Both the position numbers and the translations under genes were made by a program. Source: Syntrophomonadaceae bacterium (GTDB taxonomy: Bacteria; Bacillota; Dethiobacteria; DTU022). Taken from it: a stretch of 64,000 bases of DNA. This document shows, one piece after another, positions 46,238-50,914 of the stretch; the first letter of the stretch is position 1; each line of letters opens with the position of its first letter. Under the pieces are notes generated by a model. The model ran no database searches. It was not told the origin of the DNA and saw nothing but the letters and a program-made list of their open reading frames with translations. Location of the stretch: assembly GCA_007121075.1 (NCBI GenBank), contig SKMK01000024.1, positions 1,016 through 65,015 of the forward strand. The letters are read 5' to 3'.

Positions 46238-46987
46238 TCACTGCAGTATTTTTTTCAGTTCCTGCGGAAAATCGGTAATAATAGCCTCAATGTTTTCAGA
46301 AGCCAGATACTTCATTTGTTCTGGATCATTTACTGCCCAGGGATAAAGGGGGATGCTGTGAGCCCTGAAGCCGGCCAGTAGATCCGGGTCCTGCAGGTAG
46401 TAAAAGAGGGGATGGACGGAATAGCAACCCAGGAAACGGGCATAGTGCCAGGGCTCTTTTATTTCTTCCAGGTAGATGATGCCGGTGCGGATGGATGGGT
46501 TCAACCGGCGGCAGTTGACCAGGCTCTCGGCATTGAAGGAAGAAATAATGACTTTTTCTTCGAGGCTGTAAGTGGCGATCTGCTTTAGGACCGCTTCTTC
46601 CAGGCCAGGATAAGTGGTGAAGCGGTTTTTTAACTCTATATCAAAAAGCGGGCAGCTGTCCTTGTAGGTGGTTAGGACTTCTTCCAGGGTGGGCACAGCC
46701 GCACCTTTGAATTCAGAGGTAAACCATGATCCGGCATCAAAGGTTTTAAGTTCAGCCAGGGTAAGTTCCTTAACCGGCCCTGCGCCGGAGGTGGTGCGTT
46801 CCGCGCTCTCGTCGTGGATTACTACCGGGATGTTATCTTTGCTCAACTGAACGTCGAATTCGAGGCCGTCGGCACCGATCTCGAGCGCCAGATCGAAAGC
46901 CGCAAAGGTGTTTTCGGGGGCCAGGGAAGAAGCCCCGCGGTGAGCAATATTTAGGGTGCGATTTTCAGGGCCGCGAATAGTGATCAA
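46238..46987 (-). CDS. Glycerophosphodiester phosphodiesterase
   Basis: IAHRGA, PENT, EFDV, IHD, ELK, ITDFP. Confidence 0.93.
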   Translation of the reverse strand: MITIRGPENRTLNIAHRGASSLAPENTFAAFDLALEIGADGLEFDVQLSKDNIPVVIHDESAERTTSGAGPVKELTLAELKTFDAGSWFTSEFKGAAVPTLEEVLTTYKDSCPLFDIELKNRFTTYPGLEEAVLKQIATYSLEEKVIISSFNAESLVNCRRLNPSIRTGIIYLEEIKEPWHYARFLGCYSVHPLFYYLQDPDLLAGFRAHSIPLYPWAVNDPEQMKYLASENIEAIITDFPQELKKILQ

Positions 46988-47093
46988 CTCCTGGGCAAAT
47001 CATGTCCGGGCTGTTATTACGGACTTGTTCCATCGCCGTTATTATACTAGAGCAGGGGAAATAAGCAAGAAAAAGATCCGGGTTGGTGAACTG

Positions 47094-47882
47094 ATGAAGA
47101 AGCTGCAAGCGGTTGAGTTTTTTTTACTCGATTTGGACGGAACTATTTATCTTGGCAACGAATTAGTCGCCGGGGCACAAAGGTTTTTGAGGGTTCTGAA
47201 GGAGTGTAATAAAAAGACGATTTTTTTAACCAATAACAGCTCAAAGAACCGGTACAGCTACCGGGACAAATTGCAGAAATTGGGTATTGAGGTCAGCCCG
47301 GAACAGATTTTTACTTCCGGTGAGGCCACTGTACTCTACCTGAACCGCGAAAAACCGGGGGCAAAGGTTTTTTTGCTCGGGACCCCTCTTTTGGGCGAAG
47401 AGTTCAGGAATGCCGGTTTCGAATTAATTGATCAGGGGACCCCCGACTATGTGATTCTAGGTTTTGACACGACTCTGACTTATGAAAAGCTGTGGAAAGC
47501 GTGCGATTACATCCGGGATGGGGCAGCCTATATCGCCACCCATCCTGATCTTAACTGCCCGGTGGGAGAAGGCAGGTATATGCCCGACGCGGGAGCGATG
47601 ATCAAGTTTATAGAGGCCTCAACCGGAAAAACTCCCCTTGTGATCGGTAAACCGAACCTGCATATGATCGACAGCCTTTGCAGCAAGTATGAATTTGAAA
47701 GAGATAAGGCGGCCGTGGTCGGGGACAGACTTTATACCGACATCCAGCTGGGCATAAATGCCGGTATGATTACGGTCCTGGTTTTAAGCGGGGAAACAAC
47801 TGTGGAGCAGTACCGTTCTTCAAAAGTCAAAGCATCATATGTTTATCCCTCGGTTCAAGAGCTGGCCAAAGAAATTAAATAG
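47094..47882 (+). CDS. HAD-IIA (NagD-like) phosphatase
   Basis: DLDGTIY, LTNNS, IGKP, VGDRLYTDI. Confidence 0.92.
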   Translation: MKKLQAVEFFLLDLDGTIYLGNELVAGAQRFLRVLKECNKKTIFLTNNSSKNRYSYRDKLQKLGIEVSPEQIFTSGEATVLYLNREKPGAKVFLLGTPLLGEEFRNAGFELIDQGTPDYVILGFDTTLTYEKLWKACDYIRDGAAYIATHPDLNCPVGEGRYMPDAGAMIKFIEASTGKTPLVIGKPNLHMIDSLCSKYEFERDKAAVVGDRLYTDIQLGINAGMITVLVLSGETTVEQYRSSKVKASYVYPSVQELAKEIK

Positions 47883-47885
47883 AAA

Positions 47886-47908
47886 ACAGGCTGTTTCAAA
47901 CAGCCTGT
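47886..47908. terminator. Bidirectional terminator
   Basis: ACAGGCTGTTT-c-AAACAGCCTGT between convergent genes. Confidence 0.7.
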
Positions 47909-47913
47909 AGTAT

Positions 47914-48189
47914 TTACATCTCGTCTATCTTCAACCACTTCCAGCGCAGGAAACCTGCCAGATCTATTGTGATCTGCTTGTTGAGAAGTGAATTGCTGAC
48001 ATAGACTTTTATACCGTCAAACTCCCGGATCGAATAGTTTGCAGTGTTGCTTGGTTTGCCCTCGCGCACGGCGGTTTCAATCTGCCCGCCGCATCACCCG
48101 CCTATTCCCTGGTACTGGTAAAGGGTAAATTCCCGGGCCAGTTTTGGCATATACTCAAGGGCCTTCGGGGTTACCGATACTTTGGCCAC
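47914..48189 (-). CDS. Small selenoprotein, HesB/IscA-like CC/Se-motif type (UGA 48096-48094)
   Basis: GGAGGAG RBS, GTG start: MAKVSVTPKALEYMPKLAREFTLYQYQGIGG-U-CGGQIETAVREGKPSNTANYSIREFDGIKVYVSNSLLNKQITIDLAGFLRWKWLKIDEM*. Confidence 0.85.
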
Positions 48190-48223
48190 GATTGCTCCTC
48201 CTTTTCTATTAAAATCTACTAAT

Positions 48224-48253
48224 ATTATAGAATAAATAGGGATATAATGTCAA
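48224..48253 (-). promoter_or_regulatory. Consensus sigmaA promoter of the small selenoprotein gene
   Basis: TTGACA-18-TATAAT. Confidence 0.8.
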
Positions 48254-48373
48254 CTAAATAAGTCAGCCCGTCCTGCCATTTACTTTTCAGGGGTGGGAGA
48301 GCTGTGATAATGCCGAACAATTATGGTTAAAACTGCCATTACACTGGAAAGGCATTCCGGCCGGGGGTAGGGT

Positions 48374-48898
48374 TCAGGATTCATCCTTTGGAGAGATGCC
48401 TTTTTCGAGGAGTATTTCCGCCGTCCAGCAGGCTACCTGGCCCGAAACATTGGTGCACTTGTCATCATGGCCGCCGGCTTTCTCAAACTTTTGGTAGTCT
48501 TCGGGATCCCACAGCTTATAAGAGCGGCCGACAACATTCTTTTGGACTTCAGCGCAGGTTACTCCTCCGAACTCTTTGGTAAATTTCTGGTGGAGCTGCC
48601 GGGAGTAAGAGAAGTTTTTCTTGCGGGCGGCAGTTTTTTGCCCGAACTGCGATCTTTCCCGCCCGTAATAACTGCTGATCGCGGCCAGGCCCCCGACCAG
48701 GGCTCCGCAGGTTCCCTCCCCGCTGAGTGCCCCTCCTCCGGCAAAGGCGTGAGCCGCTTTTATGACTGGATCGTCAATACCGTCAAAGAAATCCTGCAGG
48801 GCGGCCAGGACTGCCTGGGGGCAGGCCCCGTATTTTCCCTCGTATTCATAGGCCCGGTTGTAAATATCCTCCAATAGCTGCCGGTGGTCTTCTGCCAT
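48374..48898 (-). CDS. C-GCAxxG-C-C family redox protein
   Basis: CPQAVL, GTCGALVGG, TCAEV, KC. Confidence 0.88.
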   Translation of the reverse strand: MAEDHRQLLEDIYNRAYEYEGKYGACPQAVLAALQDFFDGIDDPVIKAAHAFAGGGALSGEGTCGALVGGLAAISSYYGRERSQFGQKTAARKKNFSYSRQLHQKFTKEFGGVTCAEVQKNVVGRSYKLWDPEDYQKFEKAGGHDDKCTNVSGQVACWTAEILLEKGISPKDES

Positions 48899-49165
48899 CT
48901 CGATCTGCTCCTTTTGAGGTTTTTTAGTGCTTATTTTATATTCTTTTTCAGGTCCGCATCTCCTTTAAAAAGTTTTCGGAAACAGCAATGGTTGATGGGG
49001 AAGGTTTTTTTGTTCAAAGCTATTTTTGAGGATTGCTTATGCTAAACGGAAAGATTCTTGTCGAATTTGTATCCCTCCCCGGTGTGGCAGGAACCGGTTG
49101 GCAGGGTGTTGAATTTTATTTTTAAGTAGCCGTAACAGAAGTTACTTGTAGAGGAGGGGAAGGTC

Positions 49166-50914
49166 ATTAAATATGCGGACTTAATCTGCCAGGCCAGAGA
49201 TGAAATAAGGAATAACGGACCTGTTATTGATGATATCAGGAGCGAGGCGGTAAAGCTTGGTACCAGCATCAAAATAGGGCGGACCGCCTTTTTTGATGAA
49301 ATGGGAGTATCATCGGAACTTGAATATAAAAGGCAGGCCATGAAAGAGAAACGGATCATGGTTCATGCCCATATTGGAATGAGCAGTTGGGAGGCGACAG
49401 CCGAGGCCCTGAAAAAACTGTATTTTGAGGCAAAGGAAAGGGGCGTCCAGGTAGACCGTTACGGGTTGTGCCTGGACCGGAGAATGGGGTTACCGCGGCA
49501 ACTGCGTCGCAGGGTCCCTGCAGAAACAGGACCAACCCTGGAAAACCCGGAAGACTGGTTGGAAGTAGCCAATCTGGTCCCGATCCAGCCTCACCTGGGA
49601 GACTCGATGATCGGGTTTCCAGCTTCGGCAGAAAACACTCTGCTGGCCCTGCAGGCCGGGGTAACCACAATCGGGAACCTTTCCCAGTATTTTTCAATGC
49701 AGGCGCCGATGTGGCGTGACCAGCTTGAAACCGCCGTGGAAACAGTTAAGGCCATGGCCATCATCGGGTTGTTGAGAGAAAAGGGCACCTTGCTCCATTC
49801 CTACCTGGAAGACGGGCTCGGAGCTCTGTTTTATGATTGTGCCACGGTAGCCGGATGGGCCATGCTGGAAAAGTACCTGGCGGAAGAGTTGCTGGGGACA
49901 AAACTGACCCACTGTAATGGAGGGTTAACTTCTGATCCGGTTAAAAGAGCCGGATGGATTTTTGCTCTTGATCAGATTCATGACCACGACTGCATCGGCT
50001 CCATGTTTTACGGGGATACCATCTCTTTCACAGATGATTTTGAATGGAACCGGGGGATGGTGGCCGAATATATGCTTTGGGATGCCATGGCCCAGGTGGC
50101 CTGCCCCACCGGGCATGCACTTCATCCTTTGCCGGTCACGGAAGCGGTCCGTGTCCCTTCAGGCGATGAAATACTGGACATCCATATTTTTGCCCGCCGG
50201 GTAATCGGGACGGCCGAAAAAACTGCTCCTTACATCGATTTCAGTAGATCCCGCGAGTTTGCCGCGCGAATGGTAAACGGGGGGAAAGAAGTGTTCCGCA
50301 ATGCCCTTGACGGTTTGCAGGAAGCGGGGGTTGATACCCGGAACCCGCTGGAAATGCTTTATGTCCTTAAACAGCTCGGGGCGGCGGCTTTTGAAGAGCT
50401 GTTTGGGGCCGGCAAACCGGGTGAAGGTTTTCCCAGGGGCAGGGTACCCGTGATTCCCACTGATGTATTTGAACATACAAAGGCCAATCAAAAAAAGCTG
50501 TGGAAACAACTATCACCGGAAATGCTTGGCAAAGCCAGTAGCAAATTATTTGTTCTTGCCTCCACCGACGTGCATGAACATGCCCTTTTCCTGCTTCACC
50601 AGCTTTTACAGCAGGCCGGTGCTGATGTAATTAATCTCGGCCCGGAAATGAATACCGACCAGATCGCTGCGGCAGCGGGACAGTACGACCCCCATGCCCT
50701 GGTGGTCAGCACCCATAATGGGATGGCCCTGGAATATGCACAGAATTTAAAGAAGGAGCTCCAGCAATTAAACTGCCGCGCTCCGGTATTTTTCGGGGGC
50801 AAGTTGAATCAAAAACTCGAAGATCGGGTAATGCCGGTAGACGTGAAAGATGAAATCAAGGAGCTCGGCTTTTACCCCTGCCAAGAAATAAGTGATTTAT
50901 TCTTGCTTTTATAG
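49166..50914 (+). CDS. Uncharacterised cobalamin-dependent protein (large catalytic domain + C-terminal B12-binding domain)
   Basis: STDVHEHA, VINLG, VSTHNG, FFGG; start ATT 49166 (RBS GAGGAGG) or ATG 49301. Confidence 0.8.
   Translation: MKYADLICQARDEIRNNGPVIDDIRSEAVKLGTSIKIGRTAFFDEMGVSSELEYKRQAMKEKRIMVHAHIGMSSWEATAEALKKLYFEAKERGVQVDRYGLCLDRRMGLPRQLRRRVPAETGPTLENPEDWLEVANLVPIQPHLGDSMIGFPASAENTLLALQAGVTTIGNLSQYFSMQAPMWRDQLETAVETVKAMAIIGLLREKGTLLHSYLEDGLGALFYDCATVAGWAMLEKYLAEELLGTKLTHCNGGLTSDPVKRAGWIFALDQIHDHDCIGSMFYGDTISFTDDFEWNRGMVAEYMLWDAMAQVACPTGHALHPLPVTEAVRVPSGDEILDIHIFARRVIGTAEKTAPYIDFSRSREFAARMVNGGKEVFRNALDGLQEAGVDTRNPLEMLYVLKQLGAAAFEELFGAGKPGEGFPRGRVPVIPTDVFEHTKANQKKLWKQLSPEMLGKASSKLFVLASTDVHEHALFLLHQLLQQAGADVINLGPEMNTDQIAAAAGQYDPHALVVSTHNGMALEYAQNLKKELQQLNCRAPVFFGGKLNQKLEDRVMPVDVKDEIKELGFYPCQEISDLFLLL

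Follow-up and report, generated by a model that had tools for sequence, protein, structure and literature searches.

A single gene for a 91-residue selenoprotein of the CC/Se motif family is, as predicted from the sequence, very probably located at 48189..47914 on the minus strand of the window—that is, the whole 64,000-nt stretch of Syntrophomonadaceae DNA analysed here, to which all coordinates refer unless a contig is named. An in-frame UGA at codon 32 would specify selenocysteine (Sec, U) in this protein. When TGA is taken as a stop, as in translation table 11, the locus yields two open reading frames (ORFs) only, one of 31 amino acids (48189..48094) and one of 51 amino acids (48069..47914), and the gene is missed, as the initial annotation of this DNA had pointed out. 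Translated through the UGA, the protein was found to match the NCBIfam model NF041239 (Moor_selen_rel), "CC/Se motif family (seleno)protein", at 64.9 bits (cut-off 40; expectation value (E) 5e-18), with residues 3–89 lying on profile positions 2–89 of 91, so that the match spans the UGA. The HesB/IscA-like CC/Se assignment made in the same annotation thus holds, with the model passed across the UGA and the predicted fold, described below, being IscA/SufA-like.

The family is already curated and catalogued. Its Pfam 38.1 counterpart, PF28096 (CC_Se_fam), was seen as a precomputed label on a 51-residue fragment (P0002) and on Atlas clusters; the Pfam copy that was searched is one without PF28096, and in that copy the read-through protein matched no family at E ≤ 1. 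Among the literature searched, the family is named in one 2026 review alone, Table 1 of which gives it as a predicted selenoprotein family, first a hypothetical protein of Moorella thermoacetica (PMC13188914). The main text of the review's primary sources for the family is silent on it, and their supplements may hold it (PMC2398784; PMC5029168). The studied protein shares with the family a length of about 90 residues, a G-G-(U/C) loop, and alternation of Sec and Cys at one column. It differs in that its genus-level lineage has U-C, whereas the review's table gives CxxU (PMC13188914), and in that this lineage has Glu for the Ala of the PAVxAG peptide and, with that, a degenerate form of the selenocysteine insertion sequence (SECIS) of the family.

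In a six-frame search of 149 genomes of the class, the family was found in 71, with 103 matches altogether and up to three in some genomes; exactly one in-frame TGA was present in 84 of these matches, none in 17, and two in 2. Seventy-two loci were read at the DNA level and their read-through products aligned, the alignment used for conservation and for structure prediction holding 71 sequences. At the position equivalent to codon 32, UGA was found in 66 of the 72 members, distributed over 8 families of the class, and Cys in the other 6. Furthermore, a profile search of 1.84 billion protein representatives returned 646 matches at E ≤ 0.001, and among the best 150 of these, 142 were full length, with Cys in the Sec column in 103 of the 142. 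Homologues thus span the UGA with either Sec or Cys, as had been anticipated in the initial annotation. One Cys form (P0004), 60% identical to the studied protein, reads G-C-C-G-G and, when used as a protein-atlas query, returned only the family's own clusters. In the 71-sequence alignment, C32 and P46 are invariant and A10, G31, V41, G44, and I75 are kept in at least 90% of the sequences; both halves around the motif are conserved in what is a single-domain protein of about 90 residues.

Clear orthologues were found in five genomes of the same genus, with the shared pattern GGUCGG ... TAV(R/S)EGKP ... WKWL. Each of the six same-genus orthologues—the studied gene included—has an uninterrupted frame with one TGA. 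The proportion of synonymous differences (pS) among them was measured to be 0.40–0.84, and downstream of the UGA the ratio of nonsynonymous to synonymous substitution rates (dN/dS) was 0.09–0.32 in the 11 of 15 pairs with unsaturated dS. Because the frame is intact and dN/dS is this low despite large synonymous divergence, the part after the UGA is taken to be translated, and it is under purifying selection. Together with the alignment of both halves across the family, these values bear out the expectation that the downstream half would be conserved.

It is on account of this homology evidence that the locus is read as one gene and not as a chance pair of ORFs split by a TGA. Were the UGA a true stop, the locus would comprise either a 31-codon leader or pseudogene remnant followed by a separate 51-codon ORF that begins at GTG 48069, or else a gene inactivated by a nonsense mutation. 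Such an arrangement would account for exactly the 31- and 51-amino-acid ORFs of table 11, for the 51–55-residue C-terminal pieces that public calls hold as separate proteins (P0002, and 8 of the best 150 representatives), and for the degenerate family SECIS of the studied gene. It is nevertheless extremely unlikely: TGA occupies the same codon in 66 relatives from 8 families, the six orthologues keep it in a continuous frame with purifying selection on both sides at a synonymous divergence of 0.4–0.84, the family profile aligns across the stop and the Cys forms are full length, and no evident ribosome-binding site precedes GTG 48069, which itself lies inside the conserved GCCGUG. The 8 fragments among the best 150 representatives, of 51–59 residues and all C-terminal, are a gene-caller product of Sec forms, and P0002 was the sole match of the read-through protein in a word-indexed protein search.

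Decoding of the UGA codon

The genome to which the window belongs encodes the components of Sec insertion. A tRNA-Sec with anticodon UCA was detected (74 bits; contig C69:70-163), and selA, selB, and selD were detected at 589.4, 374.8, and 357 bits, respectively, all over their cut-offs. The UGA at codon 32 would thus be decoded by the organism's own SelA, SelB, SelD, and tRNA-Sec. The family itself has three members in this genome: the studied gene, a second Sec form, and a Cys form scoring 39.5 bits, just below the cut-off of 40.

Other genes of the same genome were also observed to contain in-frame TGA codons. The selD gene has one of its own (…SAGUAAK…), and a hairpin of 7 bp with loop GUU lies 33 nt after this UGA. 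A HesB/IscA-type selenoprotein gene (L095:1498-1812, plus strand) lies on contig C69, roughly 2.5 kb away from the tRNA-Sec gene and directly 3′ of a gene for an ArsR/SmtB-type regulator. Its product has the motif GVGUGGPKY and a C-terminal CDGCSC, and a hairpin with loop UGGAU comes after the UGA of the gene. The two best NCBIfam matches of the product fall short of their cut-offs (NF038090, 59.7 bits versus 85; TIGR00049, 56.6 versus 58.8). The two further CC/Se genes, one a Sec form and the other a Cys form, are at L024:1477-1746 (minus strand) and L025:18-311 (plus strand), on contigs C56 and C19. The Sec paralogue carries a canonical family SECIS and lies between a glycerate kinase gene and a Pyr_excise/DUF1722 gene.

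Alternatively, near-cognate or suppressor decoding could insert Trp or Cys at the UGA. In favour of this, and against Sec, Trp-type proteins REPRESENTATIVES have Trp at or beside the Sec column in 31 of the 142 full-length representatives (P0003, P0005, P0008, and 28 others), all read as protein only; in addition, the SECIS of the studied lineage is atypical. The protein P0005 illustrates the case, being 77% identical to the family member L046 with W opposite U. A search with P0005 over 401 sampled genomes of the phylum returned three relatives at 35–50% identity, with one TGA each, and no near-identical DNA was present in those genomes. Moreover, none of the 72 members read at the DNA level has TGG at the site. 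Since the nearest relatives at the DNA level have TGA and none has TGG, the Trp in this column is most likely TGA translated as Trp by gene callers. The initial annotation had set a Trp at this position against the selenoprotein interpretation; the residue is indeed found in database proteins, but the genes of comparable proteins carry TGA. Thus, with a complete Sec system and further TGA-containing selenoprotein genes (selD, the HesB-like gene, and the second CC/Se gene) in the genome, with Trp-type representatives that resemble TGA-type genes, and with an alternation of Sec and Cys and an RNA element specific to Sec forms that together are a signature of Sec decoding, readthrough by any other amino acid is very unlikely.

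SECIS elements of the family and of the studied gene

The RNA element specific to Sec forms was identified in an alignment of 62 distinct ungapped 60-nt windows around the UGA, from which L035 and L041, with U in another register, and two exact duplicates were left out. Located 23 nt after the UGA is a hairpin formed by CCUGC, the loop CGUGNNN, and GCAGG, in which 94.2% of the alignment cells are paired, compared with 19–40% when the 3′ arm is slid. The pair formed between two third-codon positions is UA in 52 windows, CG in 8, AU in 1, and unpaired in 1. The GCCGUG within this element is present in all 62 Sec forms and in none of the 6 Cys forms, and in Sec forms the hairpin sequence codes for the PAVxAG peptide. 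With its 5-bp stem, a 7-nt loop C-G-U-G-N-N-N with G-U at loop positions 2–3, and its 23-nt spacing, the family hairpin agrees with the consensus model for bacterial SECIS elements that section 5 of the 2026 review quotes, as do the selD (loop GUU) and HesB-like (loop UGGAU) elements of the same genome; some bacterial SECIS are stated there not to fit the model (PMC13188914). An additional helix, joining the GGNGG that follows the UGA to the codon preceding CCU (columns 10–13/26–29), was considered and rejected, its 62.5% of paired cells being indistinguishable from the 43–56% of slid controls.

The Ala codon GCA of the PAVxAG peptide is GAG or GAA (Glu) in the studied gene and in its five orthologues, which places a G·A mismatch in the family SECIS stem. 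A second, stronger hairpin, GCGGCGG/CCGCCGU, can form directly after the UGA (Table 1), as was proposed in the initial annotation. This pairing is real, but it does not represent the conserved SECIS of the family, 65% of the cells being paired across the family compared with 59% when slid by −3; in four orthologues the hairpin is weaker (−4.6 to −7.7 kcal/mol), with an internal mismatch in one. The SECIS prediction called for in the same annotation yields a family element 23 nt after the UGA and a degenerate version of it in the studied lineage.

Several of these features weigh against Sec insertion at this UGA. The covariation in the family hairpin is confined to a single pair, the remainder being invariant and overlapping the conserved PAVxAG peptide. 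In the studied gene, the family-register hairpin retains three of five pairs, at −0.1 kcal/mol versus a family median of −6.8 kcal/mol; a shifted 3-bp variant reaches −5.4 kcal/mol, and the values for the six same-genus orthologues range from +4.0 to −2.9 kcal/mol. A covariance model trained on 56 other family members, without the six same-genus orthologues, gave 15.4 bits on 48096..48053 (E 0.25), the top match in the 64-kb window and not significant, while the organism's own paralogue, a training sequence, scored 57.3 bits. No SECIS-type match to Rfam was found over 47000..49500 at E ≤ 10. The stronger hairpin, with a spacing of 8 nt and a loop of 11 nt, lies outside the consensus model and would bury the invariant GU; neither hairpin of the studied gene, therefore, fits that model as quoted (PMC13188914).

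One way to reconcile the persistence of the UGA with this decay is an arm switch, in which the ancestral SECIS was broken by the Ala-to-Glu change and CCGCCGU, containing the former 5′ arm and the GU, now pairs with a new complementary segment, GCGGCGG, which begins one base past the UGA. We regard this switch as rather doubtful. If it has occurred and the rearranged hairpin directs Sec insertion, the SECIS geometry would be outside the consensus, with a spacing of 8 nt, a loop of 11 nt, and the GU engaged in pairing, and a single protein family would offer a natural example of a SECIS remodelled through a switch of pairing arms. Another possibility is competition between the strong hairpin and the weak ancestral one, which could tune how often the UGA is read as Sec and how often as stop. 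Nothing here overturns current knowledge; the gene bears on what SelB needs from a SECIS. What is added is a conserved SECIS that coincides with the PAVxAG coding segment in Sec forms, and a lineage in which the family SECIS has decayed and a strong hairpin competes with it, yet the UGA and the reading frame persist.

Predicted fold and role of the selenol

The AlphaFold2 model obtained with the 71-sequence alignment has a predicted local distance difference test (pLDDT) score of 87.1 and a predicted template modelling (pTM) score of 0.74. All of the top 12 Foldseek matches are IscA/SufA/HesB-type proteins, the best being 1x0g, a cluster-bound IscA (E 9.7e-5), with 2d2a at E 2.9e-4. In structural alignments with VIA-align, the highest Z score was that for SufA (10.1; 2.1 Å over 82 residues), with two IscA structures at 9.9 and 9.7 and DsrR at 8.8. 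Judged from the model, the fold is thus confidently predicted to be of the IscA/SufA/HesB type. Sec32 is located in a Gly-rich loop between strands 2 and 3, the model's least confident part, at a position that we take to be that of the first cluster-ligand Cys in A-type carriers. This predicted fold, in which Sec occupies the Gly-rich loop and the C-terminal Cys ligands are lacking, is a further addition to what has been catalogued for the family.

At the sequence level, the likeness to IscA and HesB proteins is marginal, and the link in fold accordingly rests on a predicted model, which counts against it. NF038090 gave 13.5 bits on the studied protein (cut-off 85; E 0.066), and TIGR01911 was not reported at E ≤ 1. 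An hhalign comparison with the HesB-like selenoprotein of the same genome placed U on U, but weakly (E 0.0077, probability 5%), and a profile search of Protein Data Bank (PDB) sequences returned a chance match only, to a cohesin at E 2. With the HesB-like and IscA-HesB Sec forms (TIGR01911, NF038090), the studied protein has in common that it is small, that its predicted fold is of the IscA type, and that its Sec lies in a loop rich in Gly; it differs in failing these models, and in having neither the UxGP motif nor the C-terminal Cys cluster (CDGCSC) of the HesB-like protein from its own genome.

The resemblance in fold raises the question of whether the protein is a true A-type iron-sulfur (Fe-S) carrier such as IscA or SufA, in which Sec and Cys33 of two subunits would hold a [2Fe-2S] cluster. 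The predicted fold matches those of IscA and SufA (PDB 1x0g, 1s98, 1r94, 2d2a) over 82–85 of 91 residues, with Z scores of 9.7–10.1 and root-mean-square deviations (rmsd) of 2.1–2.5 Å, including the cluster-bound 1x0g; the U-C pair would provide four ligands per dimer in the studied lineage, and one PF28096 Atlas cluster is auto-named "FeS cluster biogenesis domain-containing protein". However, the identity to these carriers is 11–16%, PF01521 is not matched, and the IscA/HesB sequence models fail. In IscA and SufA, a C-terminal Cys-x-Cys supplies most of the cluster ligands; the studied protein has no Cys after residue 33, and the family consensus C-terminus is likewise without Cys. In addition, no isc or suf genes were found beside any of the 72 loci scanned, and in 16 of the 66 Sec forms the 6 residues on either side of Sec include no Cys. 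DsrR (PDB 2k4z), encoded in the dsr sulfur-oxidation cluster, also has the IscA fold and matches nearly as well (Z 8.8; rmsd 2.9 Å over 85 residues). DsrR is an example of the IscA fold used outside Fe-S assembly, and it lacks the conserved Cys residues; it differs from the CC/Se family, whose defining residue is Sec or Cys and whose scanned loci show no dsr context. Overall, a role as an A-type carrier is unlikely.

The second thiol was also found not to be fixed across the family: among the 66 Sec forms, Cys is at +1 from Sec in 10, at +3 in 10, at −4 in 12, at −3 in 6, and at −1 in 5. The vicinal Sec-Cys pair from which the initial annotation had suggested redox or metal/Fe-S handling is therefore lineage-specific and not a family trait, and the selenol appears, from these counts, to be the sole constant of the family motif. 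This single selenol would be the working group of the protein—a proposal that draws on fold, motif, and mixed neighbourhoods, and is the weaker for it. A redox-active or covalent carrier site is our tentative preference, at somewhat less than an even chance; the selenol would then form a selenenylsulfide with Cys33 in the studied lineage, and would react with an outside thiol or with sulfur or selenium species where no Cys is nearby. A soft-metal, metalloid, or Fe-S ligand held at the dimer interface is a lesser possibility, and some other way of working would account for what is left. We infer a ranking of the redox or covalent carrier site above a classical Fe-S ligand.

Gene layout, neighbourhood, and occurrence

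The features of the locus are collected in Table 1. All of the elements listed in the initial annotation—the promoter, the GGAGGAG ribosome-binding site, the GTG start, the UGA at codon 32, the 59 further codons, the TAA, and the terminator—were found on the minus strand.

Table 1. Features of the selenoprotein locus and its surroundings, with the selenocysteine genes of the same genome
Feature	Position	Strand	Basis or remark
Putative sigma-70-type promoter, TTGACA (48253..48248), 18-nt spacer, TATAAT (48229..48224)	48224..48253	-	12/12 match to consensus
Ribosome-binding site GGAGGAG, 5 nt before GTG	48195..48201	-	read from sequence
Predicted coding sequence, 91 residues, GTG 48189, TAA 47916..47914	47914..48189	-	TGA=U translation; NF041239 match; dN/dS
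UGA, predicted Sec codon 32, context G-I-G-G-U-C-G-G, then 59 codons	48094..48096	-	same site in 66 DNA-level relatives
UGC, Cys33, directly after Sec32	48091..48093	-	kept in all 6 same-genus orthologues
Family-register SECIS-type hairpin, degenerate; invariant GCCGUG 48072..48067	48059..48075	-	3/5 pairs
Hairpin of the initial annotation, GCGGCGG (48092..48086) / CCGCCGU (48074..48068)	48068..48092	-	7 bp, 11-nt loop, −12.7 kcal/mol
Intrinsic terminator, 10-bp stem, 3-nt loop, then T-run, tail TTTCTATTTA	47886..47908	-	serves the convergent HAD gene as well
C-GCAxxG-C-C family protein, Cys form, upstream and co-oriented	48374..48898	-	PF09719, 76.3 bits; TIGR01909, 48.5 bits versus 47.4
HAD-family (Hydrolase_6/Hydrolase_like) ORF, 308 amino acids from GTG 46956	46956..47882	+	convergent on the selenoprotein gene
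selA-selB-selD in a row (L018, L009/L017)	contig C51:16988-21462		profile matches

The promoter is the only one of that quality within 47700..49100, where three promoter-like sites were found, compared with 1.4 ± 1.1 in shuffled sequences. The arrangement TTGACA-18-TATAAT is also present in the closest orthologue (G001), and is not clearly present in the remaining four. Four of the five orthologues have a purine-rich equivalent of the ribosome-binding site ahead of the start; the row of G004 is unaligned there. The gene would thus be expressed from its own near-perfect promoter, with a strong ribosome-binding site and its own terminator.

A metatranscriptome run, the sample of which may be the source of the genome, contains one 250-nt contig identical to 47920..48169 and bridging the UGA; nothing on either flanking gene was found in the same run. 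As evidence of transcription this is limited, consisting of a single assembled contig from an RNA library, with no strand, ends, or level, and with carry-over of DNA being possible. Given the consensus promoter between the genes and an RNA contig on the small gene only, the selenoprotein gene is probably transcribed apart from its upstream neighbour.

Neighbourhoods were scanned at the 72 loci; the scan took in 140 flanking ORFs that have 100 residues or more and lie no further than 900 nt from the family gene. The upstream C-GCAxxG-C-C gene and the convergent HAD hydrolase gene adjoin the selenoprotein gene in five of the six same-genus orthologues, and the C-GCAxxG-C-C gene was found beside no other family member among the flanks scanned. 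Other members adjoin genes for glycerate kinase and Pyr_excise/DUF1722, rubrerythrin and DUF2817, FMN reductase, a rhodanese-TusA-DsrE protein, or ArsR and a low-molecular-weight phosphatase. The initial annotation had suggested the upstream neighbour as a partner, and the selenoprotein could accordingly serve the neighbouring C-GCAxxG-C-C protein as a dedicated redox partner: in five of the six orthologues the genes lie side by side in one orientation, and both families occur as Sec and Cys forms. The adjacency is thus confirmed, but the partnership is weakly supported and, in our estimation, distinctly improbable, in that the sixth orthologue lacks the pairing, as do all other members whose flanks were scanned, a full consensus promoter lies between the genes with the RNA contig on the small gene only, and conservation within one genus can be plain synteny.

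Among the loci of other genomes (L039, L043, L031, L041, L048, L068, and L045), some lie beside genes for rhodanese-TusA-DsrE sulfur-carrier fusions, and others beside ArsR and low-molecular-weight phosphatase/ArsC-type genes or an AIR-synthase-related, possibly SelD-like, gene. These neighbours hint at chalcogen or metalloid handling, but their small number and scattered occurrence keep them from counting as evidence.

For annotation, the consequence is that this gene comes out of standard gene calling split or truncated: public sets hold 51–59-residue C-terminal fragments from relatives, and also forms with Trp at the Sec site that are probably TGA translated as Trp. Split, truncated, and Trp-bearing entries of this kind call for family-aware read-through annotation, in a family that is widely distributed among these anaerobes, with a match in 71 of the 149 class genomes.

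The window stretch was found in metagenomes from soda lakes, salt lakes, and alkali sediments. A DNA contig of 1233 nt from another soda-lake sample covers 47906..48950 with 21 differences from the window; the differences listed are all at or above 48503, in the C-GCAxxG-C-C gene, with none in the selenoprotein gene or its promoter. This pattern could reflect unusually strong conservation or a chimeric contig. On the other side of the selenoprotein gene, the HAD orthologues are 262–267 amino acids long in three of four cases and 295 in the fourth; since three of the four are shorter, the true start of the HAD gene is probably further downstream than GTG 46956.

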